Shown here piece after piece: positions 30,520 through 47,015 of a stretch of DNA of 64,000 nt. The translations under genes were made by a program, and so were the position numbers. The DNA is from Candidatus Saccharimonadales bacterium (GTDB lineage: Bacteria; Patescibacteriota; Saccharimonadia; QS-5-54-17): contig JBBDUI010000002.1 of assembly GCA_040903985.1 (NCBI GenBank), forward strand, positions 198,038 through 262,037, in the 5' to 3' direction. Numbering within the stretch: position 1 is the first letter of the stretch; the number at the start of each line of letters is the position of its first letter. A model generated the notes under the pieces. The model was not told the DNA's origin and made no database searches. It saw nothing but the letters and a program-made list of their open reading frames with translations.

Positions 30520-30635
<116 letters not shown>

Positions 30636-31029
30636 AATGTTGTTACAAAGACAGCACTAACATCGGTGCCTGAACTTGCAGGCCGAAAATAGCTGTAGTA
30701 ATTACTAATTAAGTTGGACGTGAATCAAAACACAAAAGACGTTGACCTATTAGTACACCTCGGCTAAACACGTTGCCGTGCGTACACCTAGTGCCTATCA
30801 AACAGGTGGTCTACCTGTGGTCTCAAACGAAACCTAGTCTTGTGGGGGGCTTCGTGCTTATATGCTTTCAGCACTTATCCCTGCCGAACGTAGCTACCCG
30901 ACACTGCCGCTGGCGCGACAATCGGTACACCAGAGGTTCGTTCACTCCGGTCCTCTCGTACTAGGAGTGACTCCGCTCAAGTTTCATCGCCCACACCGGA
31001 TATAAACCGAACTGTCTCACGACGTTCTA

Positions 31030-31078
<49 letters not shown>

Positions 31079-31088
31079 GATGCTCCTC

Positions 31089-31125
<37 letters not shown>

Positions 31126-31157
31126 AGCGCCGTCTATGTGGACTATTGGGCGCGATA

Positions 31158-31192
<35 letters not shown>

Positions 31193-31833
31193 GCGCTGCC
31201 GATACCACATTCATGTGTGTACCACGAAGGTACTAAAAACAGCGGATCACTAACTCCGACTTTCGTCCCTGTTCGGCTTGTATGCCTCACAGTCAAGCTG
31301 GCTTATGCGTTTGCACTATCATCTCGATTTCCATCCGAGACTAGCCAACCTTTGAACGCCTCCGTTACTCTTTAGGAGGCAACCGCCCCAGTTAAACTAC
31401 CCACCAGACACTGTCTCTCAGCCAGAAGCTAAGAACGATCTAATGTAAGTAATTACTAGTTTGTTGAAGTTAGGACATTTTACTCCGTATGTGTTGCTGT
31501 TTCTACATCAAAAATGTCACTAAATTCATAGTAATCACTTGATCATTCTCACCTTGTGGCTGAGATTAGAACAAAGATACACTGAGGGTGGTATTTCACT
31601 GGTGACTCCGCTCAAGCTAGCGCCTGAGCTTCAAAGTCTCCCACCTATACTGCACAAAGTGTACCCCAATCCAATGTCAAGCTGTAGTAAAGCTCCACGG
31701 GGTCTTTTCGTCCTGGTGTGGGTAGCCGGCATCTTTACCGGCAATGCAAATTCGCCGAGTCCTTCGTTGAGACAGTATTCAAATCGTTGCGCCATTCGTG
31801 CGGGTCAGAACTTACCTGACAAGGAATTTCGCT

Positions 31834-32607
31834 CAAATCTTAAGTTATATTTACTTTAGATACGCATGTTTTCTAGTGGCACGATTTCTCGCCACACCCT
31901 ATATCGCTATAGGGATCGGACTATATCTTCTCCATCTGGAGTCCGGCGTATAGTCTCTGAGGGTTCTAGTTCCGTATTTTTCGCCGATTCGTATTCGCCG
32001 CTAGTCGTCGTATCTGAACGAGACCCTCTATACTCAGATGTTCCTTTCTAGCTATCATTGCTATTACTTCACAGAAGATAATAAAATCTTGCTGTTTAGC
32101 AGTTTGTAATGGATAGACTTCAAAGAATGGAATTATCCTTTCCTGAATATCTCTAATAGATCTGACGCAGTAGCGATACAGTGGCTCACGATGGTTATCG
32201 TATCTCGTATTGACGTATATATTACCACAGCCAAAGAAAGATTGAATACTTTCTAAGACCGACAGGCTCTTAGCGCCTTGGGTTACTACAAACTCTGGAA
32301 ATACTGGATATCCAGAAAGAGTAGTAGCGTTTTTAAATACGCTGACTGCAAAACAGCCCTCCCCATCAACGAAACCGTTTATCCACCACGGATCTAGCCT
32401 TCCCTGCTGATTGTCCGCACCTGTCGCATTATTAGTTACCATATATTCAGTATACCGAACAGTATACGAACATACAATTACTAGCGCAGGATACTACAGT
32501 CCTTTTAGGACACGGGGTTTCCAGCATATAGCCAGATTTTCTTCTCGAAACCTCACACGAGAGGAAAAACGAGAAGAGGGTCATTCACCCTACTAAGGCA
32601 GCATTCT
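31834..32607 (-). mobile_element. group I-type intron in 23S rRNA (insertion between exon sequences ...GAATTTCGCT and ACCTTAGGACGG..., near E. coli position 1917), carrying a homing endonuclease ORF
   Basis: Conserved 23S exon sequence is contiguous except for about 775 nt inserted at a classical intron site. The insert encodes a LAGLIDADG protein in the rRNA sense orientation. The boundaries are ambiguous by about 2 nt. Confidence 0.8.
31966..32442 (-). CDS. LAGLIDADG homing endonuclease (single-motif, I-CreI-like size, 158 aa)
   Basis: ...LDPWWINGFVDGEGCFAVSV... is the LAGLIDADG motif. The ORF is embedded in the intron on the rRNA strand. Confidence 0.85.
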   Translation of the reverse strand: MVTNNATGADNQQGRLDPWWINGFVDGEGCFAVSVFKNATTLSGYPVFPEFVVTQGAKSLSVLESIQSFFGCGNIYVNTRYDNHREPLYRYCVRSIRDIQERIIPFFEVYPLQTAKQQDFIIFCEVIAMIARKEHLSIEGLVQIRRLAANTNRRKIRN

Positions 32608-34158
32608 ACCTTAGGACGGTTATAGTTACCGCCGCCGTTTACTGGGGCTTCAGTTCAGAGCTTGCACTCGTTCCCTTAACCTTCCAGCACTGGGCAGGCG
32701 TCAGCCCGTATACATCCACTTTCGTGTTAGCACGGACCTGTGTTTTTAGTAAACAGTCGCTTGAGTTCTTTTACTGCGGCCCTACACCCTAAAAGGGTGC
32801 GGGGCAGGCCTTATCCCGAAGTTACGGCCGTTATTTTGCCGAGTTCCTTAACGAAGGTTCTCTCGTACACCTTGGTCTACTCGACCTGAGCACCTGTGTT
32901 GGTTTGCGGTACGGTTAGCTATGTTTATACGTATCGCGTCTTTTCCGGTCGGTTTGGCTTGCGCAACTCTCCCGTAATCGGGATCGCATTCGTGCTTCAC
33001 CTCCACAAAAGTGGAAACTAGACACTTAGACAGTTATAGCCAAAAAACTGCTTGCGCTACCATACCGCACAACGCGATACAACAACATCACTAGTACGGG
33101 AATATTAACCCGTTGTCCATCGCCTACGCACTACGCCTGGGCTTAGGACCGACTAACCCTGAGATGATTACCATGGCTCAGGAAACCTTGCTCTTTCGGT
33201 GGAAAAGATTCTCACTTTTCTTATGGCTACTAATTCCAGCATTCTCACTTCCTTGCGCTCCAGCTGGCCTTCCGGCTCACCTTCAACGCTGCAAGGAACG
33301 CTCCTCTACCACTCCAGTATGAGACAAAACCTACGGTTTCATCTCAAGTTCACTTACGTTCACTGCTCTTTTTCCCTGATAGTGTATTTCACTTCGAATT
33401 TATGCGAAAATTATTCGTTCATATCTTAATCAGAAATCAATAAGCACAACTATAAGCTTAGTCTCATACTAGAGTCCGCGATTTCGGTACCAAACTTAGC
33501 CCCGTTACATTTTCCGCGCAGAATCACAATCGATTAGTGAGCTGTTACGCACTCTTTAAATGAATGGCTGCTTCTAAGCCAACATCCTAATTGTCTTTGC
33601 GACTCTACCTCGTTTCCCACTTAGTTTGGATTTAGGGACCTTAATCGGCGGTCTGGGCTGTTTCCCTTTCGAGCGCGGAGCTTAGCCCCCGCGTTCTAAC
33701 TGCTGTGCTTCCACGATCGGTATTCGTAGTTTGACAGGGATGGATACGGTTGCCCGCTCCAGACCCAATCAGAGCTCTACCTCCAACTGCTACCACACAA
33801 CGCTAGCCCTAAAGCTATTTCGAGGAGAACCAGCTATCTCCAGGTTCGATTAGCATTTCACCGCTATCCACAGGTCATCCAAACACGTTGCATTGTGTCC
33901 TGGTGCGGCCCTCCACGAACTGTTACGTCCGCTTCAGCCTGCCCATGGATAGGTCACCTGGTTTCGGGTCTACTTCATAAAACTAATTTCGCCCTATTAA
34001 GGCTCGCTTTCACTACGCCTACTCCGCTTATGCGGATTAAGCTAGCTTTATAAAGTAACTCGCTGGATCGTTCTACAAAAAGCACGCCGTCACCCCGATA
34101 AATCGGAGCTCCGACTCCTTGTAGGCACACAGTTTCAGGTCTATTTCACTCCCCTTAC

Positions 34159-34201
<43 letters not shown>

Positions 34202-34980
34202 ATCATACATCATATTTAGTCTTGGAAGGTGGACCTCCCAGATTCAGTCAGAGTTTCACGTGTTCCGACCTACTCGAGATAAAAAACATAAGGTTGCTAC
34301 GTTTTCGGATACGAGGCTTTCACTCTCTTTGGCAGTCCTTTCCAGAACTTTCTCCTAACCCAGCAATTTGTAACCTTACAGATCTATGACAGTCGATCTT
34401 CATCTCGATATCATCTCTAGCGATAACTATTTATCAACCAGAGATGATATCGAGAGTCGTCTAATATCTCACAACCCGATACAAGTATTCGCCTGTCAGC
34501 TTATTCGTGTAAGTTAATACTCGAAAACTTATATCGTTTAGACTGTTTCCCTTTCGCTCGCCACTACTGAGGAAATCGCATATGCTTTCTATTCCACCGG
34601 GTACTAAGATGTTTCAGTTCCCCAGGTTCCCTCGCACTATCCTATATATTCAGATAGCGGTGACTCTGTATTACCAGAGCCGGGTTTCCCCATTCGGACA
34701 CCCCCGGATTATAGCTCGTTTGGCAGCTCCCCGAGGCTTATCGCAGCCTACTACGTCCTTCGTCGGTGAATGTATGTCAAGGCATCCGCTGTGCGCCCTT
34801 TCTCGTCTTTTGCATTACCAAGAACTGTTGAAGTTCTTGGATTTCACACCAACTTAATTAGCAAATAGTACAGCTATTTGCTAAATGTTTGTTAACGTTC
34901 TAAGCTCCCTAAAAATGCAAAGCCTAAATGACTGCTGACCCCTATAATCGGCAATCACTTAAGCTCATAGCGCAAGCTGG

Positions 34981-35010
34981 ATTGTATCACAGGAAAATAA
35001 CGCCTGTAAA
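34981..35010 (-). promoter_or_regulatory. candidate sigma70-type promoter for 23S-5S transcription
   Basis: On the minus strand: TTTACA, an 18-nt spacer, then TACAAT. This sits about 150 nt upstream of the 23S 5' end and immediately downstream of the NOX-like gene stop. Confidence 0.5.
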
Positions 35011-35077
35011 TACCTCTGATACTTTGGTTTTTATCTTTCCCCTCATTATAGAGTGGATAGCCCTAGCCGTCCAGTAG

Positions 35078-36394
35078 CTAGAAAGAGAACTCTTCGTAGT
35101 GCAGACGATCCTCGTCGATTCCAGCAGCAACGAACTGCTTACGCAGACCGTTTAACATCGGTGGTGGACCACAGATAAAGATAGCGGCGGCCTGGATGTC
35201 CGCTCGCTGCTGTAGCAACTCTAAATTCATGAATCCCTCCCGCTCCTCACAGATGTGGTGCATTCGAAAGCCGGCATGGCGCTTAGCCACTGCGGTTAGC
35301 TCCGTATGAAATAAGGCGTCGGTGTCTGACTTAGTACAGTAGAAGAAGTCGATATCGTACCGCAGCTTATCCGGAAAACTCCGCACCATACTGAGGAACG
35401 GCGTGATACCGATGCCACCGGCGATCCAGATCTGACGACGACTAGTTGAGTTGAGATAACTAAAATTGCCATATGGGCCGTCGACAATAGCTCGGACGCC
35501 AGGATGCACCTCCCCGATCTTAGCCGTGTAATCCCCCAAATTTTTAACGACGAAGCCAAGCTGACGATCGTGACGGCTCGAGCTAAAGGAGAACGGATGC
35601 GCCTCTCGTTGTACCGCAGCATCCCGCATACTCAAGTAGCCGAACTGACCCGGTCGAAAACTGACCGGATGCCAGCTCGGCTGCAGAATAATCTCAGTGA
35701 TGTCTTCCCCCAGATGGTTAACCGCCTCTACCCGGTAAGGGTACTTTTTAGTTAACCATTCTCCCAGAACCGAATGATACAGATAACTGAGAGCACCGAT
35801 GAATGTCACGATCAGCATATACCGCCGTAAAGCCGGGTTATCCAGAAGATGACCGCTAGCTAGGAAGGTGTGCAGGGCGGCCGGTACCAACAACAGCCCC
35901 AGTAAACGGTGAACCGTCAAAAAGGTTTGATATGGTAGTTTATACAACACTGTCGCTGTTAAGAGAGCGGCCATGCCCAAGAAAGCGATTACTCCCCATG
36001 TAACCACCGCGTCGACCCCCGGTACCCACATTCGCAGTGCTCCCAGTGGAGCGCTCATAGCGATAGCCGCTGTGATCGCTACAGCGTGTACGGCAATGGC
36101 GATAAAGCTATAGCTACCAAAGATACGATGTGCCTTATAGGCCTTATCTAAACCAAGAAAGAGCTTATCAATCGATTTCAGTCGCGCCCCCAACACCAAC
36201 GACCACATAAAGCTAGCGAAACCGGTAAATGCCCCCACTTTAGCCACGACAGTTAAGCCATGGCGGAGAGTTGACACCTCACCGATTAGCTCGGGCAGCC
36301 TAAGCCACAGGTAAAGCGGTATGATAAGGGCGACGCTCAGACTGACACTCCAGCCCAGGCTACGTCGCAATCGATTCCGTATATCTTCTCTCAT
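35078..36394 (-). CDS. ferric reductase/NADPH-oxidase-like (NOX/FRE family) flavocytochrome: 6-TM ferric-reductase domain fused to FAD- and NAD(P)H-binding domains
   Basis: His-containing TM helices, an FAD-binding HPFSFSS motif, NADPH-binding GGIGITPF, and CGPPPM. Confidence 0.7.
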   Translation of the reverse strand: MREDIRNRLRRSLGWSVSLSVALIIPLYLWLRLPELIGEVSTLRHGLTVVAKVGAFTGFASFMWSLVLGARLKSIDKLFLGLDKAYKAHRIFGSYSFIAIAVHAVAITAAIAMSAPLGALRMWVPGVDAVVTWGVIAFLGMAALLTATVLYKLPYQTFLTVHRLLGLLLVPAALHTFLASGHLLDNPALRRYMLIVTFIGALSYLYHSVLGEWLTKKYPYRVEAVNHLGEDITEIILQPSWHPVSFRPGQFGYLSMRDAAVQREAHPFSFSSSRHDRQLGFVVKNLGDYTAKIGEVHPGVRAIVDGPYGNFSYLNSTSRRQIWIAGGIGITPFLSMVRSFPDKLRYDIDFFYCTKSDTDALFHTELTAVAKRHAGFRMHHICEEREGFMNLELLQQRADIQAAAIFICGPPPMLNGLRKQFVAAGIDEDRLHYEEFSF

Positions 36395-36415
36395 TAAGCT
36401 GTATTATGGCATATC

Positions 36416-36445
36416 ATAACGCCTGTCGCTAGCGACAGGCGTTAT
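36416..36445. terminator. perfect palindromic hairpin (CATAACGCCTGTCGC-TAGC-GACAGGCGTTATG) between convergent or adjacent genes, probably a terminator
   Basis: 14-bp perfect arms located between the 36473 stop and the 36394 start. Confidence 0.5.
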
Positions 36446-36472
36446 GATGCTTTGACCGAATCCAAACTGATA

Positions 36473-37327
36473 CTAGGCGGGACCGGTAGTTGGCAGCTGC
36501 TCTGGACCGGTGGTTGGAATCGCTTCCGGTTCAGGCTCTGGTTCTGGCACCGGCTCAGGCTCGGGCTCGGGTTCCGGTTCAGGCTGAGCTGCGACTATTA
36601 CTAGCTCGCTAGAGCTATCGTTTTGCCCCTGCAGCACTCCGTTATCGGCTGTGGCCGTCACATTATACGTGCCGGCTGCCAGTTCCTGCGTTATCTCTAC
36701 GGACCATGTACCATCAACCGCTAATTCGGCTTCATACTCTTCGCCATCTACCAAAACTGTCACAGTAGCCTCTGGGTCATCTACTGTACCGGTTACTGTC
36801 GGAGTAGCATCCTCAGTCTCAATCCCGTCAACCTCTACCTCGATCACCTCTGGCTCTGAGTCTGGAGTGGCTACCGGCTCTTGGACAGTCGGCCCCTCTG
36901 AGCTAGCATCACTCCAAAAGAAGTACCAGCCCGCACCGCCCAACGCTACTAATAAGATAAGAGCACTAAGCGCAATTAAGATCCACTTGTGCGACTGAGA
37001 TGGCTGCTCCATATAAGCACCCGTATTATTAGCTCCAGTTTGGAGTGGAAAGCTCGAGGACTGAGATTGATCTAGGCGGGATGAAACGTCACCATTAGCA
37101 GATGAGGCGCCATATGCTGCCGGGTCACCCATGGTTTGATCTGTGCTTGACTCGGCAAAGCGATCTGGACCAGCTAAATTAACTTCGGCTGGATTAGCCG
37201 CCGGAAGTGGGCTGGTGTCAAAGCTGGTATCGACCGGTGGTGTTACTCCTGGAGACGGGGGCGACGTATTAGGAACATCCGGGGTGGCTGCTGCTGGTTG
37301 TGGCAAATCTGGTTTTTCTTCTGGCAT
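36473..37327 (-). CDS. membrane-anchored low-complexity protein: Pro-rich N-terminus, single TM, Ig-like/acidic domain, (PE)n repeat, C-terminus ...LPTTGPA
   Basis: TM segment WILIALSALILLVALGGAGWYFFW, PEPEPEPEPEPVPEPEPEPE, and a terminal LPTTG with no following hydrophobic tail. Confidence 0.5.
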   Translation of the reverse strand: MPEEKPDLPQPAAATPDVPNTSPPSPGVTPPVDTSFDTSPLPAANPAEVNLAGPDRFAESSTDQTMGDPAAYGASSANGDVSSRLDQSQSSSFPLQTGANNTGAYMEQPSQSHKWILIALSALILLVALGGAGWYFFWSDASSEGPTVQEPVATPDSEPEVIEVEVDGIETEDATPTVTGTVDDPEATVTVLVDGEEYEAELAVDGTWSVEITQELAAGTYNVTATADNGVLQGQNDSSSELVIVAAQPEPEPEPEPEPVPEPEPEPEAIPTTGPEQLPTTGPA

Positions 37328-37472
37328 ATTGAACTCTTTTTATATTATTAGTTTTTATTTCTAACTTCTATACTTACGTTCAACTATATACGTAAGCGGA
37401 TTGCCTTGTCAAGCTCTAGGTCGCTATCGCCACGAGTTGGCGACATTTTTTGTTTTGTGGGACAATAACAGC

Positions 37473-38015
37473 ATGAGAAAGCTAACCACCTACTTCATTA
37501 AAGGGCTGCTCTTCCTTCTGCCGATCTTACTGGTTATTACCCTAGTGCGAGAACTGTTCTCCATCGTCTTGCCTACAGGGGTGGGATTCATAAGCGGCGT
37601 AACTACTCTCGGCATAGCTATCCTAATTACTACTCTCGTCGGAGCTGTAATAACTGGCGGACTTCAGCCTTACTTTAAACGCAGAGCTCTCCGTGGCCTG
37701 GGCAAGTTCCCCTTTCTGAACCAGATATTTACCTCAATGAAACGGTTTGTACTAATCCTCAACTTCTCCCGGGAAATATTTGAAAACCCGGTTATAGTAA
37801 CCCGCGAGGAAGGTCGTGAGATAAAATTCGGCTTTGTAACTCGCTCAGGTCTGGAGCAGTTTGGTCTCAGCCAGCACTCTAGTGTCTATCTGCCCGATCC
37901 ATTCTCCTTCTTAGGCGAGATGGTAGTGGTAGCTAACAAAGACTTGAGGCCAGTAGAAGGGAAACGATCAGAGGTATCGAACTTCATCTTATCCGGGGGA
38001 CTAGTACAGAAATAA
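37473..38015 (+). CDS. DUF502-family membrane protein
   Basis: About 180 aa from the internal Met (MRKLTTYFIKGLLFLLPILLVITLV...), with two N-terminal TM segments and a conserved C-terminal domain typical of COG2928/DUF502. Confidence 0.55.
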   Translation: MRKLTTYFIKGLLFLLPILLVITLVRELFSIVLPTGVGFISGVTTLGIAILITTLVGAVITGGLQPYFKRRALRGLGKFPFLNQIFTSMKRFVLILNFSREIFENPVIVTREEGREIKFGFVTRSGLEQFGLSQHSSVYLPDPFSFLGEMVVVANKDLRPVEGKRSEVSNFILSGGLVQK

Positions 38016-38110
38016 AGACGCATTTGCGCCTGCACCATACAGATGCGCCCGAGGAGTAGGGCTTCGAAGGTCTACCGCCTGGGTCTGATCTGGTCGGTTC
38101 TCAAGTATAT

Positions 38111-38162
38111 TCTCCACCAAGAAAAGAGTCCGGCTGACGCCGAGACTCTTTTCTTGGTGGAG
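38111..38162. repeat. 20-bp perfect inverted repeat (TCTCCACCAAGAAAAGAGTC ... GACTCTTTTCTTGGTGGAGA) overlapping the 3' CCA end of tRNA-Ala
   Basis: It can form a long hairpin incorporating the tRNA 3' terminus. This may be a processing or termination element. Confidence 0.6.
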
Positions 38163-38231
38163 ATGGAGGGACTCGAACCCTCGACCCCCTGCTTGCAAAG
38201 CAGGTGCTCTAGCCAACTGAGCTACATCCCC
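38155..38231 (-). tRNA. tRNA-Ala (anticodon TGC), CCA encoded
   Basis: Sense sequence GGGGATGTAGCTCAGTTGGCTAGAGCACCTGCTTTGCAAGCAGGGGGTCGAGGGTTCGAGTCCCTCCATCTCCACCA gives a cloverleaf with a CTTTGCAAG anticodon loop. Confidence 0.92.
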
Positions 38232-38304
38232 ATGCTTGAGTAATTTTAAAGGTATGGCTACCCCTAAGCACGTACCAGAGTATACAATAAATATAATCGT
38301 AAAA

Positions 38305-38541
38305 CTATATTCTCGGCTCTAGCTTTTCCCAGAAAGCCTCGGCCCGTACTTGATAGCCGCGACTATTAGGATGAAACCAATCAGCTGCATAATCAAGCAG
38401 GGGGTTAAGCTTGCCCCTAGTCGCCTCATATAGCGGAACGAAGACCAGGCCATTTTCAGCGGCAGCAAGTCTTATTATCCGGCTAGCTGATTCTGCCTTC
38501 TGATTAGTCTTACTGCTGCCGAAGCTAGGCACACCAGCCAT
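38305..38541 (-). CDS. short ORF resembling the C-terminal block of an SGNH/GDSL hydrolase (DxxH motif); possible gene fragment
   Basis: ...DYAADWFHPNSRGYQVRAEAFW... resembles SGNH block V. It is only 78 aa long. Confidence 0.35.
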   Translation of the reverse strand: MAGVPSFGSSKTNQKAESASRIIRLAAAENGLVFVPLYEATRGKLNPLLDYAADWFHPNSRGYQVRAEAFWEKLEPRI

Positions 38542-38801
38542 TACAAGATGTCGCTGGCAAGCGTCGACTGGCCGTCGCCCTTGATCGCCGCCTTGAGTTC
38601 GTCCAGTGTCGTGGCGGCCTCGACGGCGGCGAGGAGCTCAGCTCGTGGGTCTGGTCGCGTGGCGATCGCCTCGTCATAGGCAGCCTGCAACGTAGTTTCG
38701 TCCGGCTCGTCGCCGTGGACGGTCAACGTCTCACCTACCTTTGTGTAGGCGATGCCGAGATGGGCTAGGGCGCACTTGCGCTGTGTGGTGTCCAATGCCA
38801 T
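38541..38801 (-). CDS. hypothetical protein, very G+C-rich, translationally coupled to the upstream tail-fibre-like gene
   Basis: 86-aa ORF whose start overlaps the stop of the 38801-40129 gene. G+C is far above the window average. Confidence 0.45.
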   Translation of the reverse strand: MALDTTQRKCALAHLGIAYTKVGETLTVHGDEPDETTLQAAYDEAIATRPDPRAELLAAVEAATTLDELKAAIKGDGQSTLASDIL

Positions 38802-40129
38802 CAGGAACGTACCTCCGTGAGTGTCATCAGCGCCCCCGCTATGATAGATGACTCCACATTTGGTGACCCGGTCGGCCAGGGGCCGTGCTCTAGACGGTAG
38901 GTACGGGTGGCCGTCGATCCCGGTTCGTGCTCGCCTTCGAGCGCAATCGGGGAGTAGAACGTGGCCGTTTCGCTGGACGATGCAAGCAGACGGTGACCAC
39001 GACGCTCGTTGGTGACCACCTCGTCGCCAGTCGTGTCGCGGATTTGCACGACACCGTTGCGGTTAATCGAGCTACCGGACACCACCGAGTAAGTAACCTG
39101 TCCCGAAACGCGGGCGAGGATGATCGAATCGGCGTACGCTGGCATGATCGTGGCTTCGAGACCGGAGTCTTGCGGCGTGTCGGCGGTAGTGTCCGAGTCG
39201 CTACCCAAGGTCGCAGTGACGACCTGCACCACAGACGCACTACTCCCAATCGCCTGATCATGCTCGGTGATGGCTTGTTGGACATTTACGGCTGTGGTGT
39301 GTTCCAGGCCGGTCGGGTCAAACTCGATGTTGGTAGCTGGGTGGGCGTCTGCTACGGCCTCATGATTAGTGATAGCTGTAGTAGCGGTACCGGCAGGATC
39401 AGCTCCTACATCACTGGCATCCAGAGAAACAATACCGGTATCACCGTTGACAGACTGGACGGGGGCTTCGGCTGCTGTGATGAAGGTAGCGGAGTGAGCT
39501 TCATTACCATGCTCGGTTGGAGTACGGGTAGCACTGGCATCATCTAGGGTGGCATCACTAATCTTGGCGTTGAGGGCAGCTAGGGTGGTAGCACTGTGTT
39601 CGATACCACCTAGTGAGTGACCTTTCGGTACTTGGGGGTCGGCTAGTTCGCCGGAGAGGCCATCGACGTTCAGTTCATCAGTTCCGCCGGATTGGTGGGT
39701 GGTGGTGTGGTTAGCTACATCACTAGCATCTAGAGTTACTGCTCCGGTCTTAGAGTTGATGCTTAGTACGGGGGCAATAGCAGCTACCCAGGTGCTAGTG
39801 CCACTATCGTAGGTTAAGACATCTTGATCACTGGCAGTATCGGTATCGGTATCATCTAGGGCGGCTAGAGAGGAGCCGACACCTGGGAGTCCATCAACAT
39901 AGGCTTTAGTGACGGCGTCTTGAGGGGTGGTAGGGTTGGCTAGTCCGACAATCTTGTTTCCGCCTAGGGATAGCTCTCCGCCCATAGTATCGCCACTGCG
40001 GTTGAGCTTCTGAGTTAGCTCAGTACCACGTTTGAGGGAGCCATCACTAGCTAGTTCGACACTGAGGTATTCGTTGAGGATGTCTCCCCATGTTCCTTCG
40101 TCTGATCCGGGGATTGGTAGTCGTGGCAT
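38801..40129 (-). CDS. phage tail-fibre-like protein
   Basis: The N-terminus has the classical tail-fibre motif ...SGDTMGGELSLGGNKIVGLANPTTPQDAVTKAYVDG.... Repeats SINSKTGAVTLDASDV and SVNGDTGIVSLDASDVGA follow. The 3' half and the downstream ORF are much more G+C-rich than the window, which suggests a chimeric or foreign origin. Confidence 0.65.
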   Translation of the reverse strand: MPRLPIPGSDEGTWGDILNEYLSVELASDGSLKRGTELTQKLNRSGDTMGGELSLGGNKIVGLANPTTPQDAVTKAYVDGLPGVGSSLAALDDTDTDTASDQDVLTYDSGTSTWVAAIAPVLSINSKTGAVTLDASDVANHTTTHQSGGTDELNVDGLSGELADPQVPKGHSLGGIEHSATTLAALNAKISDATLDDASATRTPTEHGNEAHSATFITAAEAPVQSVNGDTGIVSLDASDVGADPAGTATTAITNHEAVADAHPATNIEFDPTGLEHTTAVNVQQAITEHDQAIGSSASVVQVVTATLGSDSDTTADTPQDSGLEATIMPAYADSIILARVSGQVTYSVVSGSSINRNGVVQIRDTTGDEVVTNERRGHRLLASSSETATFYSPIALEGEHEPGSTATRTYRLEHGPWPTGSPNVESSIIAGALMTLTEVRS

Positions 40130-40231
40130 TATACTTTAGCTTCAATGTTTAGTTGCTATGTACCCAATATAGAGTGGTTGTGGTTATCTGGCAACTGGTG
40201 GGAGGTGGGAGTTATTATCGATTGGGGTCAT

Positions 40232-40262
40232 CCGGGACTCGAACCTGAGGCCTCGTCATTAG
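40232..40262 (-). pseudogene. degenerate partial copy of a tRNA 3' half (T-arm GGTTCGAGTCC plus part of the anticodon stem)
   Basis: GGGACTCGAACCTGAGGCCTCGTCATTAG parallels GTGGACTCGAACCACGGACCTCGTCATTATCAG of the adjacent tRNA-Ile. It cannot fold into a full tRNA. Confidence 0.6.
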
Positions 40263-40305
40263 GTCTCGCTTTGCTCGATAAAGCATAATAATTTTTCAAT
40301 CCAAA

Positions 40306-40383
40306 TGGTGGGGCTGCGTGGACTCGAACCACGGACCTCGTCATTATCAGTGACGCGCTCTAACCAGACTGAGCTACAGCCCC
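40306..40383 (-). tRNA. tRNA-Ile (anticodon GAT), CCA encoded
   Basis: Sense sequence GGGGCTGTAGCTCAGTCTGGTTAGAGCGCGTCACTGATAATGACGAGGTCCGTGGTTCGAGTCCACGCAGCCCCACCA. Confidence 0.92.
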
Positions 40384-40410
40384 TCCATTTGGATTGAATT
40401 ATAAAAGTAC

Positions 40411-40560
40411 GAAACAGTGACGCGCTCTAACCGGGCTGAGCTAATCGCCCTCCAGCTGTATTTTACTATCTTCAGAATACACAGTGACGCACACTAGCTG
40501 GGCAGCTGTGTCCGCCATAGCCCCCAAGCGACGGCGGAAGCTAATCGCCCCTATAAAAGC
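40411..40560 (-). repeat. two tandem, progressively degenerate copies of the tRNA-Ile 5' half plus its upstream flank (remnants)
   Basis: Positions 40414-40460 match the tRNA 5' half: CAGTGACGCGCTCTAACC identical, then ...GCTGAGCTAATCGCCCTCCA. Positions 40478-40560 repeat ACAGTGACGC... and ...GCTAATCGCCCCTATA with an internal insertion. Confidence 0.65.
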
Positions 40561-40718
40561 ACACCTTATTGTAACCAGAAATCACCTCCTGGGGCAAGTC
40601 GGAATTACTGGTATCGATATTATTTATGTTTAGTAGTCATTTAAACAACAATCACCCTGTCATTCGACAGGGTGATTGTTTGTAGCTTTAAGTGCTTAGA
40701 CTGTGCAGCATAACCAAC

Positions 40719-40848
40719 CCCGCACCTGAGATGCAGGCAATAGCATAAGCTATTGCGACTCGGCTAGCCCTAACTTTCTAATGAAATAGCTAGGAACTAG
40801 TTACAGCTAAAGTTCTTGCGAACTTTACTGCATTTCAGGTGCGGGGCC
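40719..40848 (-). ncRNA. structured spacer element downstream of 16S: 19-bp long-range stem enclosing two hairpins (candidate processing element or small RNA)
   Basis: CCCCGCACCTGAGATGCAG at 40719-40737 pairs with CTGCATTTCAGGTGCGGGG at 40830-40848. Internal hairpins are GCAATAGC-ATAA-GCTATTGC and CTAGC...GCTAG. Confidence 0.4.
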
Positions 40849-40959
40849 GACCTTGGGATCTATCACTAACTCGACCCTTCGTTCCCACCAATGGCGGGAC
40901 CTTATCTTCGAGCGTAATAGGTCTAGTTTCGATTATTAATCGAAACGGTTTTCCCTAGA

Positions 40960-42445
<1,486 letters not shown>

Positions 42446-42866: not shown

Positions 42867-45800
42867 CTACTCGGTAGCTGTCGGGCTAGAGAAGCCGGCC
42901 CCAATTACGTGGTAGTCAAAGCTGTATTCGGTACCAGCTGTCACCGGGACGGTAGTGACCAGCATGAACCCTGCGGGAGTCGACTTCACATACACCTCCA
43001 AGCTAGTAGCGGCGGCATTTCTAGCCGAAATCGTGACTCGGGGCGGGAAGGTGTAAATTTGAGAGAAGTCGATCCGCGCTAACTCATACTCATTAGTCTC
43101 CACCACGCTCTCTGATACCACCACATTAATAGTTCCGGCTACATCAGTTCCGCTTAAACTAACTGTACCGCCTTCTAGATCAGCCCCGGAACTGGCTTCT
43201 GGGGTGTTACCGGTGCTGAGAAGATGTCCTCCTATACTTAAGTTCATGCTTACTCGTACTGCTGAGACACTAAGAGTACCCCCGATCACCACATCTCCGG
43301 TCACCTCTAAGCTAGCCAGCGTACTAGCACCACTCACGTTCAAGCTTGAGAAGTCAACTTGCTCACCACTATCCTGTACGCTTTCGCTGGCTTGCTGTAA
43401 TTGTGGTATATAGTTCTCAGTCTTCACAAAGACCATCACTGAGCCGACGTCGCTACCACTGTAACTCTCTAGGGCATAGCCGACAATTCGTGCCGGATCA
43501 CTAGCTTTCATTCCGACCCCTGGAGTTTCAGAGAGGGTAATGGGGTCGCCTACAGCTATGCTGCCATTCTCTGTGGTTACATTTACTGGCACCCGACCGA
43601 CTAGGGCAAGCGGTGCGCCCTCGGTCTTCGAAGCTAAGACCAAACCAGGCTCAGTAGAGATAATCCCAGCTAGAGACACGCTCGTGGTAGCTCTCACTAA
43701 CTTGCCTTCGGCGTTAAAGGCCACGATGTCACCGGGCTCAACCGGCTCGGCGGTGGCATAATGCTCAGCAACGTCGGCAGAAGTATCGGTTAGGAAAGCA
43801 TGGGCCCGCACGTTACCGGAAACAGTTAACTTGCTATCGGGAGAGGTGGTGCCGATACCTACATTTCCGCCCTGGATGAGAGTATTGGCGTTAGCGTCAA
43901 TCGTAAAAGCGTTAACCGTAGTCTCTTGGTAGTTGCTGATAGTTTCGCCATGAGAGACCACTGCAGCATAGGGCACGATCGGATTAATTATAGTTGGTAA
44001 CACCGTGCTGTTGGTTGGGCTATGACTGCCTACAGACGGGCTGACTGTAATTGATTCGGGCGAGATGTCAGTCTCCTCAAGCTCAATATCTTCACAAATA
44101 TCACCGCACCCCTCGATGTTAACCAGGCCATGAAATTTAGCCGCCATGAAATCGCTACCACCTGTACCGTAGCTAGACGTAATGCCAGCCACCACATACC
44201 CTCCATCACTAGTCTGGCGAGCAGATCGAATTTGATCGCTACTGGTGCCGCCCACTACCCTAGTCCACTCTTCAGCTCCACTGGAGTTAAACTTAATCAA
44301 CATAAAGCTGTTATTGCCCGGCCCATAGCTGGCGGTATAGCCGCCTAGAATGTAGCCTCCGTCACTAGTCTGCTGTACTGATTGAACGACATCACTACCA
44401 GTTCCACCCGCTACCTTAGTCCACTCATGAGCTCCATCAGAGTCGAGCTTAACCAGCATAAAGTCGTTACTACCGGCACCGTAACCGGAGGTATAGCCTC
44501 CAATGATATAGCCCCCGTCACTAGTCTGCTGTACGGACTGGGCTGTTTCGCTACCGGTGCCACCTATCACTCTTGTCCACTCATGAGCTCCATTGGAGTC
44601 GAGCTTAACCGTCATAAAGTCGCCACTGCCCGCACCATAGCTGGAGGTAGAGCCGGTCAAGATGAAGCCACCGTCACTGGTATAATCCATATCATTCGTC
44701 GTATCACTACTACTTCCTCCGATCGCACGTGTCCAGAGACTCACGCCATTACTATCGAGTTTGGTTATATTAAAATCATTACTACCCCCGGTTGTAAAAG
44801 TAGAGCTATACCAAGAGATGGCATAGCCTCCGTCACTGGTCTGTTTTACAGTAGAAGGCGATGACTCACTACTGGCGCCACCCAGTGTCTTACTCCAGCT
44901 AACCGCTCCATTAGCCGTAAATTTAATAACCATTAGATCGTAACTTCCCGCCCCCAAACCGTTAACTCGTCCCGAAGCGATATATCCCCCATCTGTAGTT
45001 AAATCTACCGAGTAGCCAATGTCACTACTGGTGCTACCCAGTACGGTCGACCATTCCAGCTGACCGAATACGTTAAGCTTAGAAAGCATCCAGTCGCCAC
45101 TACCCGCACCGTATGAGTTAGTCTCTCCCACAACGATATAACCACCATCACCGGTCTGACGGATTGAATAAGCCGAATCACTGCTCGTCCCGCCCCATGC
45201 TGTTATGAAACTCGATGTGCTTGTGCCGATATTTGCCCGAGTAGTCACGCGTAGAGCATCACGACTTAGATCGGTATGATCTATCTCCAGCCGACCTCCT
45301 AAACGAGTGTTGCCTTCTACGCGAAGATCCTCTTGAACAAATAGATCCCGGTCCAGGCGGGTATCGCCACCAACTCGAGCATCGCCCTCAACTAAAAGGT
45401 TACTAGTATGCGTCTGGCCGTTCGTTATCTTTACTACGGTCAGAGCGTCTGCCCCGCTACTTGCGATATATGCATAGCTGTCGGCAACAAATAACCCACT
45501 AGCACCTGCTAAATCGCCATCACTTATGCTGCCCGTCTGAGTCGGTGCAGCTGGGTCGACCACATCGACGACCGCTAACGTGCCCGTAGTGTCACTTGTA
45601 ACATACGCGTAGCCACCGCTGAAGAACACTTCGCTAGCGCCGGTCAATTCGGCCGATGTCACCGTGCCCACCTGGGATACTGCGGCCGGATTAGTAATGT
45701 CAATTACTGTTAACGAACCGGCTGTGGCGCTGGCCACGTAAGCATAGTCTCCACTCACAGCCACGCTTCTAGCCCCATTCAAATCAGTATTAGCTATGCT

Positions 45801-47015
45801 ATCGACTGTGCTTAAGGCGGCCGGATTAGTAATATCGATTACTGTTAACGAACCGGCTGTGGCGCTGGCCACGTAAGCATAGTCTCCATTCACAGCAACT
45901 CCCCGGGCGCCTACCAAATTAGCGGAGCTAAAGCTGCTAACTTGAGTTAAATCATTTGGATCACTGATATCAACAACCGTTAGGCTACCAGCATAATGAC
46001 TAGCGATATATGCATAGTTCCCACTAATAGCGATATCGCTAGCGCCTTCGAGATCAGTATTATTAATGTAAGTATCTACCTTAACAGGAGTAGTAGGATC
46101 GCTAATATCGATCGAGACGACAGAATCCGCATGGAAGCTGGCCACGTAAGCATAATCTCCACTTACGGCTACCCTTCTAGCACCATTAAGCTCGACCGCA
46201 TCCGATACGCTACCGACCTGGGCTAGCTCATCAATATAGCTAACATCAACTATCGTCAACGCATCGGCCTCAGAGCTTGCCACGTAGGCATAAGAGTCCC
46301 TAATAACTACTCCACTTGCCCCGACAAGTCCGGCAGTAGTTAAAGCCCCAGAGGAAGACAAGCTCGAGTTAGTAGCCACTCGCAATATATCCTGTCCGCT
46401 ACTAGTCTTAACAGCCAGAGCACTCGCTACCGGTGCGACTGAACGAACAGATGCCTCTCCATATACATCGAGTGCCACCTGCGGGCTGCTAGTACCAATG
46501 CCGAGACGACTACTAGTATTATCCCAGTGGAAGTTACTATTACCAGTTAAAGAGTCACTCCCATCAAAGAAAGCGATCTGGCCCACACTACCGCTACCCT
46601 GAAGGCCACCACTACCACCACCAGGACAGTTACCAGAGGCATCGCAGACTTGATTGCCATTTTGGAGTAAGCTGGTAGCTGTTATCTGCTGGAAGGTATT
46701 ATTGCCACTAAAAGTATTGTTCGCATTAAGAAAGGCTACATTACTACTTAAAGCTCCGTCAGCTACCGAACCTGCGCTCGAAATTGTCAGATCCTCATCC
46801 ACCTCACTATTCTGAATCGACTGTCCCAATAGCGAGACACTCGCATCAAGCCGAGCGTTAGACAATGTACCAGTACTTATATTACTAGCATTGGTAAAGT
46901 AGGAGCTTGTATTCCCTCCTAAGCTTGCTGCATTAACGTTAGTGAGATTAGCTCCGTCACCCTGGAGACTACCCGCGATCAAGGTACCAGATATATTGAT
47001 ATGCCCTGACTGCAC
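42867..47015 (-). CDS. giant surface protein: Gly-rich N-terminus, about 10 LVIVD-type beta-propeller repeats (SGDYAYVAS...LTVIDI), about 9 SBBP-type repeats (TSDGGYI...YGAG..D), and a C-terminal tail-fibre-like region ([16 protein letters not shown])
   Basis: The repeats are periodic at both protein and DNA level. It probably starts with GTG and is probably the continuation of the upstream collagen-like ORF. Confidence 0.6.

Follow-up and report, generated by a model that had tools for sequence, protein, structure and literature searches.

The closest described counterparts of the element reported here are group I introns inserted at position 1931 of the 23S ribosomal RNA (rRNA) gene (site L1931; all rRNA positions are given in Escherichia coli numbering). 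In the compilation of Haugen et al. 2007, introns at this site measure 654–700 nucleotides (nt), carry single-motif LAGLIDADG genes encoding 143–167 amino acids (aa), and are listed from Simkania, three Thermotoga species and two Synechococcus strains (PMC1995217, Table 1); the same element is also reported there from the chloroplasts and mitochondria of green algae and from the mitochondria of Acanthamoeba (PMC1995217). As described in that work, these introns are IC1-like, have a complex P5 region and lack P2, and in the cyanobacterial introns at L1917, L1931 and L2593 the open reading frame (ORF) overlaps the ribozyme core (PMC1995217). Here we analyze a stretch of 64,000 nt from the assembly GCA_040903985.1 of a Candidatus Saccharimonadales bacterium (contig JBBDUI010000002.1, forward-strand positions 198,038 to 262,037), referred to as a whole as the window, whose 23S rRNA gene is interrupted by an insert of 774 nt. 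The insert lies at L1931, has a covarying group I RNA architecture and contains a gene of the LAGLIDADG_1 family with an intact motif, and we consider it very probable that what interrupts this 23S gene, probably the only one of its Saccharimonadales genome, belongs to the L1931 family of mobile group I introns, with the canonical ribozyme fold and a LAGLIDADG homing endonuclease gene.

A second point of comparison is the survey by Tsurumaki et al. 2024 of rRNA insertions in bacteria of the candidate phyla radiation (CPR), which reports insertions in 82% of CPR 23S genes (PMC11270868). As presented in that survey, LAGLIDADG_1 genes concentrate at 23S positions 1917, 1931, 1952, 2593, 2604 and 2657, with 1931 among the frequent sites 23IS6-8, the enzymes are nearly all single-domain, and 64 of the 66 rRNA insertions counted in Saccharibacteria are short, with neither an intron nor an endonuclease gene (PMC11270868). 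One of the enzymes, I-ShaI, from a 23S insertion of Ca. Shapirobacteria, is reported to be a single-domain LAGLIDADG_1 protein that cleaves the DNA of the insertion site and dimerises, with 42% identity to I-CeuI in its authors' own comparison (PMC11270868).

Measured against the published account of L1931 introns (PMC1995217), the window intron is alike in its site, its single motif, an ORF that lies in a peripheral loop and reaches into core helices, an IC1-like P7 and J8/7, and a complex P5 region, and it falls near the same size class at 774 nt and 158 aa. It differs in possessing a 51-nt P2-P2.1 insert and an extra P5 hairpin, and in the phylum of its host; the shared site and architecture point to homology. 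With the CPR insertions as surveyed (PMC11270868) it has in common a CPR host, the hot spot at 1931, a group I-like structure recognized at a permissive Rfam E-value, and the company of short insertions resembling intervening sequences (IVSs) in the same gene at known IVS sites, whereas, judged by the Saccharibacteria in that survey (PMC11270868), its Saccharimonadales host stands in a rare minority. The element is a member of a published class (bacteria, 1999–2007; CPR survey, 2024) at a known site, its differences from that class are modest, and such introns are uncommon, not absent, in Saccharibacteria; the element carries little weight for new biology.

Insertion site and predicted splice junctions

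In an Rfam scan of the window the rRNA operon proves to be complete and to lie on the minus strand, and its 23S gene (30731–34812, bacterial 23S model) gives a match of 4082 nt to a model of 2925 positions. In the covariance-model alignment of the large-subunit rRNA a single insert of ~777 nt falls at model positions ~1954–1956, between ...GUCCUA and ...AGCGAAAUUCC, and a MAFFT pairwise alignment with rrlH of E. coli K-12 places a 774-nt insertion directly after U1931, at window positions 31834–32607. An earlier note on this DNA had proposed a group I intron with a single-motif LAGLIDADG gene at exactly these coordinates, which the alignment reproduces to the base, but had put it near position 1917. 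The insertion point is between U1931 and A1932 (the E. coli sequence CCTAAGGT ends at 1931), which is the known L1931 homing site; L1917 is a different site, whose introns have an endonuclease lineage of their own (PMC1995217, Table 1).

On the minus strand the 5' exon ends in ...CCGUCCUAAGGU, the intron runs from AGAAUGCUGCCUUAGUAGGG (intron nt 1 at 32607) to UUAAGAUUUG (terminal omega-G at 31834), and the 3' exon resumes with AGCGAAAUUCC...; the flanks read ...CCGUCCUAAGGU before the intron and AGCGAAAUUCCUUGUC... after it, and the intron-less form of the junction is ...ACTATAACCGTCCTAAGGT followed directly by AGCGAAATTCCTTGTCAGG.... The 5' exon closes with the 7 nt CUAAGGU (32608–32614), which form the exon strand of P1 and are complementary to the internal guide sequence GCCUUAG (32593–32599), the intron strand of P1, such that U1931 (window 32608) stands opposite a G in the U.G wobble pair at the 5' splice site. 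P1 tracks the host exon, as relatives with the exon sequence UUAAAGU have the guide GCUUUAA, a compensatory change. Just upstream of the guide, the P10 strand GCU (32600–32602) pairs with the AGC (31831–31833) that opens the 3' exon, and the intron ends in ...AGAUUUG with its terminal G at 31834.

In the mechanism that we propose, P1 would set the 5' splice site at the U.G pair, P10 would align the 3' exon and the terminal G would end the intron, while free guanosine would initiate the two transesterifications that excise it. Splicing would restore the link between U1931 and A1932, immediately 3' of helix 69 (1906–1924), and the product would join ...CCUAAGGU to AGCGAAAUUCC....

The splice sites of one group of relatives look different. 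The L1931 inserts of Gemmatimonadota type (L003 343–1079, L033 175–910 and that of L002; L numbers denote fetched loci) share the P3-P9 core, and they end in ...CCA, not G, before AGCGAAAUUCC, with no obvious guide complementary to CUAAGGU; either their splice sites are shifted, or their P1 and omega-G are atypical.

Ribozyme core and covariation

Thirteen loci with relatives of the endonuclease were collected from genome representatives and 80 from metagenomes, and many of them also hold ORF-less introns that share the strings CUAUAUGCUGGAA ... AAUCAGCAGGRAA ... CCUCAGAGACUA. In these ORF-less introns the P4 3' strand UCAGCA is immediately followed by the P6 5' strand (GGG or GGA), a short P6a hairpin and the P6 3' strand (CCC or UCC) just before J6/7. 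Because the ORF-less relatives display this canonical arrangement, the real 3' strands of P4, P5 and P5a in the window could be recognized at 32405–32427, and GCGACAGGUGCGGACAAUCAGCAGGGAAGG is found at 32398–32427, within the first 15 codons of the ORF.

The fold was evaluated in an alignment (A1) of 28 distinct family members from which the P6 loop, with the ORF, was deleted and in which P7 was treated as a pseudoknot. Standard pairs occupy 94.8% of 1344 cells, against 32–42% when the 3' partners are slid by 1–3 columns, a comparison in which the structure has an advantage, being partly derived from the same sequences. Double-sided changes affect 285 cells and 34 of the 49 pairs, no observed measure was equalled in any of 500 shuffles, and the independent pair types go far beyond what the derivation bias would give. 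The P3-P7-P4-P6 core, which the earlier note had named as the feature whose lack would speak against a group I intron, is present and covaries.

P3 pairs UCUGGC (32531–32536) with GCCGGA (31942–31947), the latter strand crossing P7 in a pseudoknot, and 99.4% of its cells are paired, with double-sided changes in 5 of 6 pairs. P4, framed by J3/4 (UAUA) upstream and J4/5 (AAA) downstream of its 5' strand UGCUGG (32521–32526), has its 3' strand UCAGCA at 32405–32410; all of its cells (100%) are paired, and it is mostly invariant, with double-sided changes in 1 of 6 pairs. In P5 the strand CCGUG (32511–32515) faces UGCGG (32415–32419) and is followed by the small extra hairpin GUCC-uaaaa-GGAC (32499–32511); the inner three pairs are formed in 98.8% of cells, two of them with double-sided changes and one with 12 double changes. 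P5a joins CCUGCGC (32484–32490) to 32420–32427 (GCG-A-CAGG, with a bulged A), with 97.4% of cells paired and double-sided changes in all 7 pairs. The 3' strands of P4, P5 and P5a together (32405–32427) read GCGACAGGUGCGGACAAUCAGCA and code for residues ~6–13 of the protein (ATGADNQQ). Beyond P5a, the minimum free energy (MFE) fold of the P4-P6 region gives a long P5b hairpin (32428–32483), a region whose length differs among relatives and whose 3' strand contains the AUG (32440–32442).

P6 is formed by GGG (32402–32404) and CCC (31961–31963) and alternates between GGG/CCC and GGA/UCC among relatives (98.8% of cells paired, double-sided changes in 1 of 3 pairs). P6a, which closes a loop of 437 nt that houses the body of the ORF, pairs CUAG-A-UCCGU (32388–32397) with ACGGA-A-CUAG (31966–31975); in the window 9 of its 10 positions are complementary, its 3' strand includes the UAG stop codon (31966–31968), and its four outer pairs, all with double-sided changes, are formed in 92% of cells. 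Two pairings made by hand in this region, of the P4 3' strand with the Leu-Ala codons CUAGCG and of the P5 3' strand with UACGG near the stop codon, were rejected because the helices would cross, and UACGG is part of P6a.

P7, with J6/7 (UCA) just upstream, pairs G(A)GACUA (31951–31957, with its bulged A) with UAGUCC (31918–31923), and 99.4% of its cells are paired, with double-sided changes in 3 of 6 pairs and a switch between U-A and C-G in 11 sequences. Guanosine is predicted to bind at the G-C pair after the bulged A (alignment columns 223/281), which all 28 sequences have without variation. The P8 hairpin CUCCA-ga-UGGAG (31930–31941) covaries in all 5 pairs and is formed in 78% of cells despite length variation. 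J8/7 (AAGAUA, 31924–31929) and the P7 3' strand, together 31918–31929, are near-invariant in relatives. P9, CCCUAUA-GCGA-UAUAGGG (31897–31914, GCGA loop), is formed in 98.5% of cells with double-sided changes in 6 of 7 pairs, and the MFE fold adds a P9.1 hairpin, GUGGC...GCCAC (31876–31895), within the segment that continues as the 3' tail to the omega-G (31835–31895). In the folded ribozyme a P3-P8 and a P4-P6 domain would be joined through the P3/P7 pseudoknot, with P7 holding the guanosine-binding site.

Between P1 and P3 the window has a peripheral insert of 51 nt (32540–32590) with the hairpins P2 (GGGU-gaaug-ACCC) and P2.1 (UCUUCUCG...CGAGAAGA, with an inner CCUC/GAGG hairpin), and its fold of -23 kcal/mol (z -4.3) was matched by 0 of 200 shuffles. 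P1 leads directly to P3, without such an insert, in L001, L021, L022, L024 and L025, and L019, L027, L028, L002, L003 and L033 have an insert of their own at this position. The extra P5 hairpin is likewise missing from several relatives.

The helix order and the bulged A of P7 are the same as in the IC1 intron of the Tetrahymena thermophila large-subunit rRNA gene, which differs in its position (L1925, in nuclear rDNA), its host, its lack of an ORF, and its large P5abc and P9.1-P9.2 extensions. The J8/7-P7 stretch of that intron we take to be nearly identical (AAGAUAUAGUC), and its J4/5 is presumably AAA.

That this fold is inactive in vivo, with the 774 nt staying in mature 23S rRNA just 3' of helix 69 or the rRNA being fragmented there, seems to us improbable. 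All the catalytic elements are in place (the U.G pair, the omega-G, the bulged-A P7 with its G-C, J8/7 with AAGAUAUAGUC and J4/5 AAA), the compensatory covariation throughout the family argues for selection on the fold that splicing explains most simply, and a 774-nt insert beside the intersubunit bridge of helix 69 would, from what is generally known of ribosome structure, probably be harmful. Still further from what we would expect is a non-intron insertion, of the RNase III-type IVS or some other kind, that encodes a LAGLIDADG gene by chance and is removed without ligation, to which we give almost no credence. IVS-like insertions do occur elsewhere in the same 23S gene (a near-perfect 20-bp hairpin at 34363–34471 and the helix 45 site), and CPR 23S genes are reported to hold many uncharacterised insertions (PMC11270868), but the insert is more than one long hairpin, its group I core is complete and covaries, its P1 and P10 strands complement the flanking exons, and position 1931 figures in the published compilations as a group I site and not as an IVS site (PMC1995217; PMC11270868). 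To the extent that sequence analysis can decide, a plain IVS is ruled out.

The endonuclease gene and its protein

The only long ORF in the insert, at 31966–32442 on the minus strand and hence in the orientation of the rRNA, encodes the 158-aa protein with the motif FVDGEGCF that the earlier note had reported. It matches Pfam PF00961 (LAGLIDADG_1) over residues 22–126 with an E-value of 3.3e-24 and 86.2 bits against a cut-off of 23.1, and no family of NCBIfam matched it. The motif, INGFVDGEGCF in its wider context, is intact, with E28 as the predicted catalytic and metal-ligand acidic residue. In an alignment with 17 homologues, G27-E28-G29 and many other positions are invariant, and the window protein is colinear and full-length, with no disruption of the frame. 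A large protein collection holds 1588 homologues, mostly of 162 aa, the best of them 75% identical, and those that stem from NCBI carry no recorded names.

Among solved structures the best sequence matches are the domains of I-PanMI, I-SmaMI and I-OnuI, enzymes of fungal mitochondria, with whole-chain E-values down to 1.4e-49 (I-PanMI) among the matches listed. These enzymes, ~300 aa long, are fused pseudo-dimers whose targets are mitochondrial protein genes or other sites, whereas the window protein is a single domain and would have to dimerise; the two halves of such an enzyme each align with it over its entire length (1.8e-19 and 2.5e-26 for the halves of I-PanMI). A single-domain entry of 170 aa, PDB 5gkk, matches at 2.6e-28, and a literature search for 5GKK found no paper. 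I-CreI and I-CeuI are not among the best 60 of the 65 PDB chains passing E 0.01, the weakest of those 60 standing at E 2e-6. I-ShaI, which like the window protein is encoded by an intron of a CPR bacterium and is a single-domain LAGLIDADG_1 enzyme as described in PMC11270868, offers the best experimental model, by analogy, for how this protein would act.

The gene and the ribozyme are closely interleaved. The P6 loop accommodates the body of the ORF, codons 1–15 traverse P5b, P5a, P5, P4 and P6, and the stop codon falls within the P6a 3' strand, which makes the intron a clean case of dual coding in which ~15 5' codons and a stop codon double as ribozyme helices. The N-terminal peptide ADNQQGRL, invariant or nearly so in the 17 homologous proteins, is coded by the 3' strands of P5 and P4 together with the 5' strand of P6, and the same RNA is conserved in the ORF-less introns, so the near-invariance of the peptide is very likely dictated by the ribozyme RNA. 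The overlap of ORF and ribozyme probably explains not only this peptide but also the failure of the Rfam model described below.

The exact endonuclease protein is absent from a collection of 15 billion proteins in which neighbouring proteins of the same contig, for example FtsZ, are present. Annotation pipelines do not call genes within rRNA genes, and this is the most likely reason for the missing record. The gene is unannotated in the deposited metagenome-assembled genome (MAG), with the consequence that the 23S rRNA annotated there exceeds its proper length by 774 nt and that the set of proteins is short of one.

Relatives, proposed homing and alternative explanations

All fetched homologues of at least ~45% identity with readable flanks interrupt 23S at the same junction as the window intron (for example L001, L003, L017-L019, L021, L022, L024-L028 and L033), and the more remote homologues (<=42% identity) are in 16S or at other sites. 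This one-site pattern is as expected for a lineage of homing endonucleases tied to one target. By analogy with I-CreI and I-ShaI, the protein would act as a homodimer and cut, around position 1931, 23S rDNA that has no intron; an intron-bearing copy, used as the template for repair, would then spread the element (homing).

The earlier note had taken the intact ORF as a sign of recent mobility, a suggestion that the data support neither way, as an intact ORF does not date mobility and the closest relatives are distant (62–69% nt identity for introns, 75% for the protein). For the nearest full introns fetched, this 62–69% compares with 61–86% in the flanking exons; the intron is approximately as diverged as its exons, which on these identities would fit long residence or an old transfer. 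Saccharibacteria MAGs with related genes are represented by L001, L006-L008 and L013. Some relatives carry several introns: two or three of the same structural class interrupt one rRNA gene in L004, L023, L027, L032, L035 and L038, with three in the Levybacteria MAG L004, and the class includes forms with a LAGLIDADG gene in P6 and ORF-less forms. In a Gammaproteobacteria MAG (L011 617–697) a related LAGLIDADG gene adjoins a match to domains D1-D4 of a group II intron inside 16S rRNA, which recalls the LAGLIDADG-bearing group II introns reported at 16S position 1400 of CPR bacteria (PMC11270868).

Several points weigh against reading the insert as an active, mobile group I intron. The Rfam scan at the gathering threshold gave no intron match in the window. 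The search with the Rfam group I models that the earlier note had proposed did return a match to RF00028 (31897–32092), in the range of E 1e-6 to 3e-7 (1.2e-6 and 2.8e-7), but at 35.9 bits, below the gathering score of 50; its alignment is convincing for J6/7, P7 (at the position given above), P3', P8, J8/7, P7' and P9, and wrong in placing the 5' strand of P3 and P4-P6 in the 3' end of the ORF, where ~18 nt are left for P4-P6. The outer two pairs of P5 are weak, formed in 42% of cells, and P9.1 and the tail come from the MFE fold, without comparative support. The AUG lies inside the P5b helix with no obvious Shine-Dalgarno sequence upstream, which makes translation uncertain. The L1931 intron of Simkania negevensis is said to be unspliced. 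As the host genome probably holds a single rRNA operon, the enzyme would be without a target in its own cell. Lastly, the sequence comes from a MAG, and rRNA regions in MAGs can be chimeric.

The low Rfam score is most likely due to the 437-nt ORF loop that splits P6 and to the long P5 region, not to a loss of the core; an ORF-less member of A1, L004 1941–2160, scores 63.3 bits, above the gathering score. The matter of the missing target bears on a different reading, in which the intron is real and its ORF is no longer that of a homing endonuclease, being either a maturase that aids the folding of the ribozyme or a gene that has not yet decayed. Maturases and bifunctional proteins occur in the LAGLIDADG family, the PDB matches include I-AniI and an "mRNA maturase" (2e-6), and relatives of 62–75% identity at best give no sign of a recent invasion. 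This we regard as unlikely, as homologues from different hosts, which all occupy one site, agree without exception in the metal-binding acidic residue of GFVDGEG and in many further positions, as expected under selection for site-specific cleavage, and a related single-domain CPR enzyme is reported to be an active nuclease (PMC11270868).

The MAG origin in turn raises the question of whether an intron-bearing 23S gene of another organism was joined into the contig during assembly. Operons of rRNA are a classic site of chimerism in MAGs, the rRNA region has a GC content of 45–48% against 51–55% in its flanks, and the exact endonuclease protein is not on record where FtsZ of the same contig is. 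We judge the artefact very improbable: low GC is normal for rRNA genes, the operon lies within a contig of 739 kb with continuous flanking genes, and a protein record would be missing anyway where pipelines skip genes inside rRNA. L001, the source of the closest intron and 23S relatives, is moreover a Saccharibacteria MAG itself, in keeping with the host label. Even in a chimeric contig the intron itself would be real. As for the host, a protein identical to the FtsZ of the window is on record in assembly GCA_040876815.1 (contig JBBDOY010000002.1, 739 kb) and in two Logan runs (SRR27977661 and SRR27977662), and the NCBI protein names of FtsZ and NrdR give Candidatus Saccharimonadales bacterium. 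The compact housekeeping proteins of the window fit a CPR genome. The 16S of the window is only 72–78% identical to every 16S among the fetched loci, and a comparison with TM7-specific oligonucleotides (1–2 mismatches in conserved regions, TM7-905 signature absent) was uninformative.

Taking the window element to be such a mobile L1931 intron, we advance more tentatively, and with less than even confidence, the proposal that it is one of few endonuclease-bearing group I introns of Saccharibacteria, acquired horizontally from other CPR bacteria or from bacteria outside the CPR, and a variant of L1931 that has gained P2-P2.1 and the extra P5 hairpin, possibly with a new target specificity of its endonuclease. 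With the window intron, a lineage that rarely carries introns of this kind gains an example from the Saccharimonadales. Meganuclease scaffolds are one use for which single-domain LAGLIDADG enzymes with kinship to the I-OnuI family hold some interest, and if the target specificity were indeed new, an endonuclease only 75% identical to anything on record could serve as a new scaffold.

Other features of the rRNA operon

The remaining genes of the operon, all on the minus strand and identified with Rfam, are 16S rRNA (40959–42443), tRNA-Ile (40306–40383), tRNA-Ala (38155–38231) and 5S rRNA (30525–30632). Besides the intron, the 23S gene has several shorter insertions and four small deletions relative to E. 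coli. An insertion of 109 nt after position 287 (window 34363–34471) forms a near-perfect 20-bp hairpin (-38 kcal/mol, z -4.8) and looks like an RNase III-type IVS, and one of 50 nt follows position 272 (34487–34536). Others stand after 1163 and 1185 (23 and 120 nt, at the helix 45 IVS site; 33311–33475), 2183 (66 nt, 31516–31581), 2211 (60 nt, 31428–31487) and 2406 (24 nt, 31209–31232); the folds of the insertions at these last four locations in the window are no better than those of shuffled sequence.

The spacer between 16S and 23S (34813–40958) is 6.1 kb long and holds protein-coding ORFs besides the two tRNAs. They encode a protein resembling ferric reductases and FAD/NAD oxidoreductases (35078–36394, minus strand), an Ig-like Big_13 protein (36473–37327, minus strand), a DUF502 protein (37401–38015, plus strand) and, between tRNA-Ile and tRNA-Ala, a product of 442 aa (38801–40129, minus strand) with no match in Pfam or NCBIfam. 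The stretch from 38 to 40 kb has the highest GC content in the window (56%) and is the sole one with positive GC skew. Adjoining 16S on the side away from 23S, an ORF encoding 1382 aa (42867–47015) has matches to LVIVD repeats and a beta-propeller (DUF5122), and its product is probably a large surface protein.

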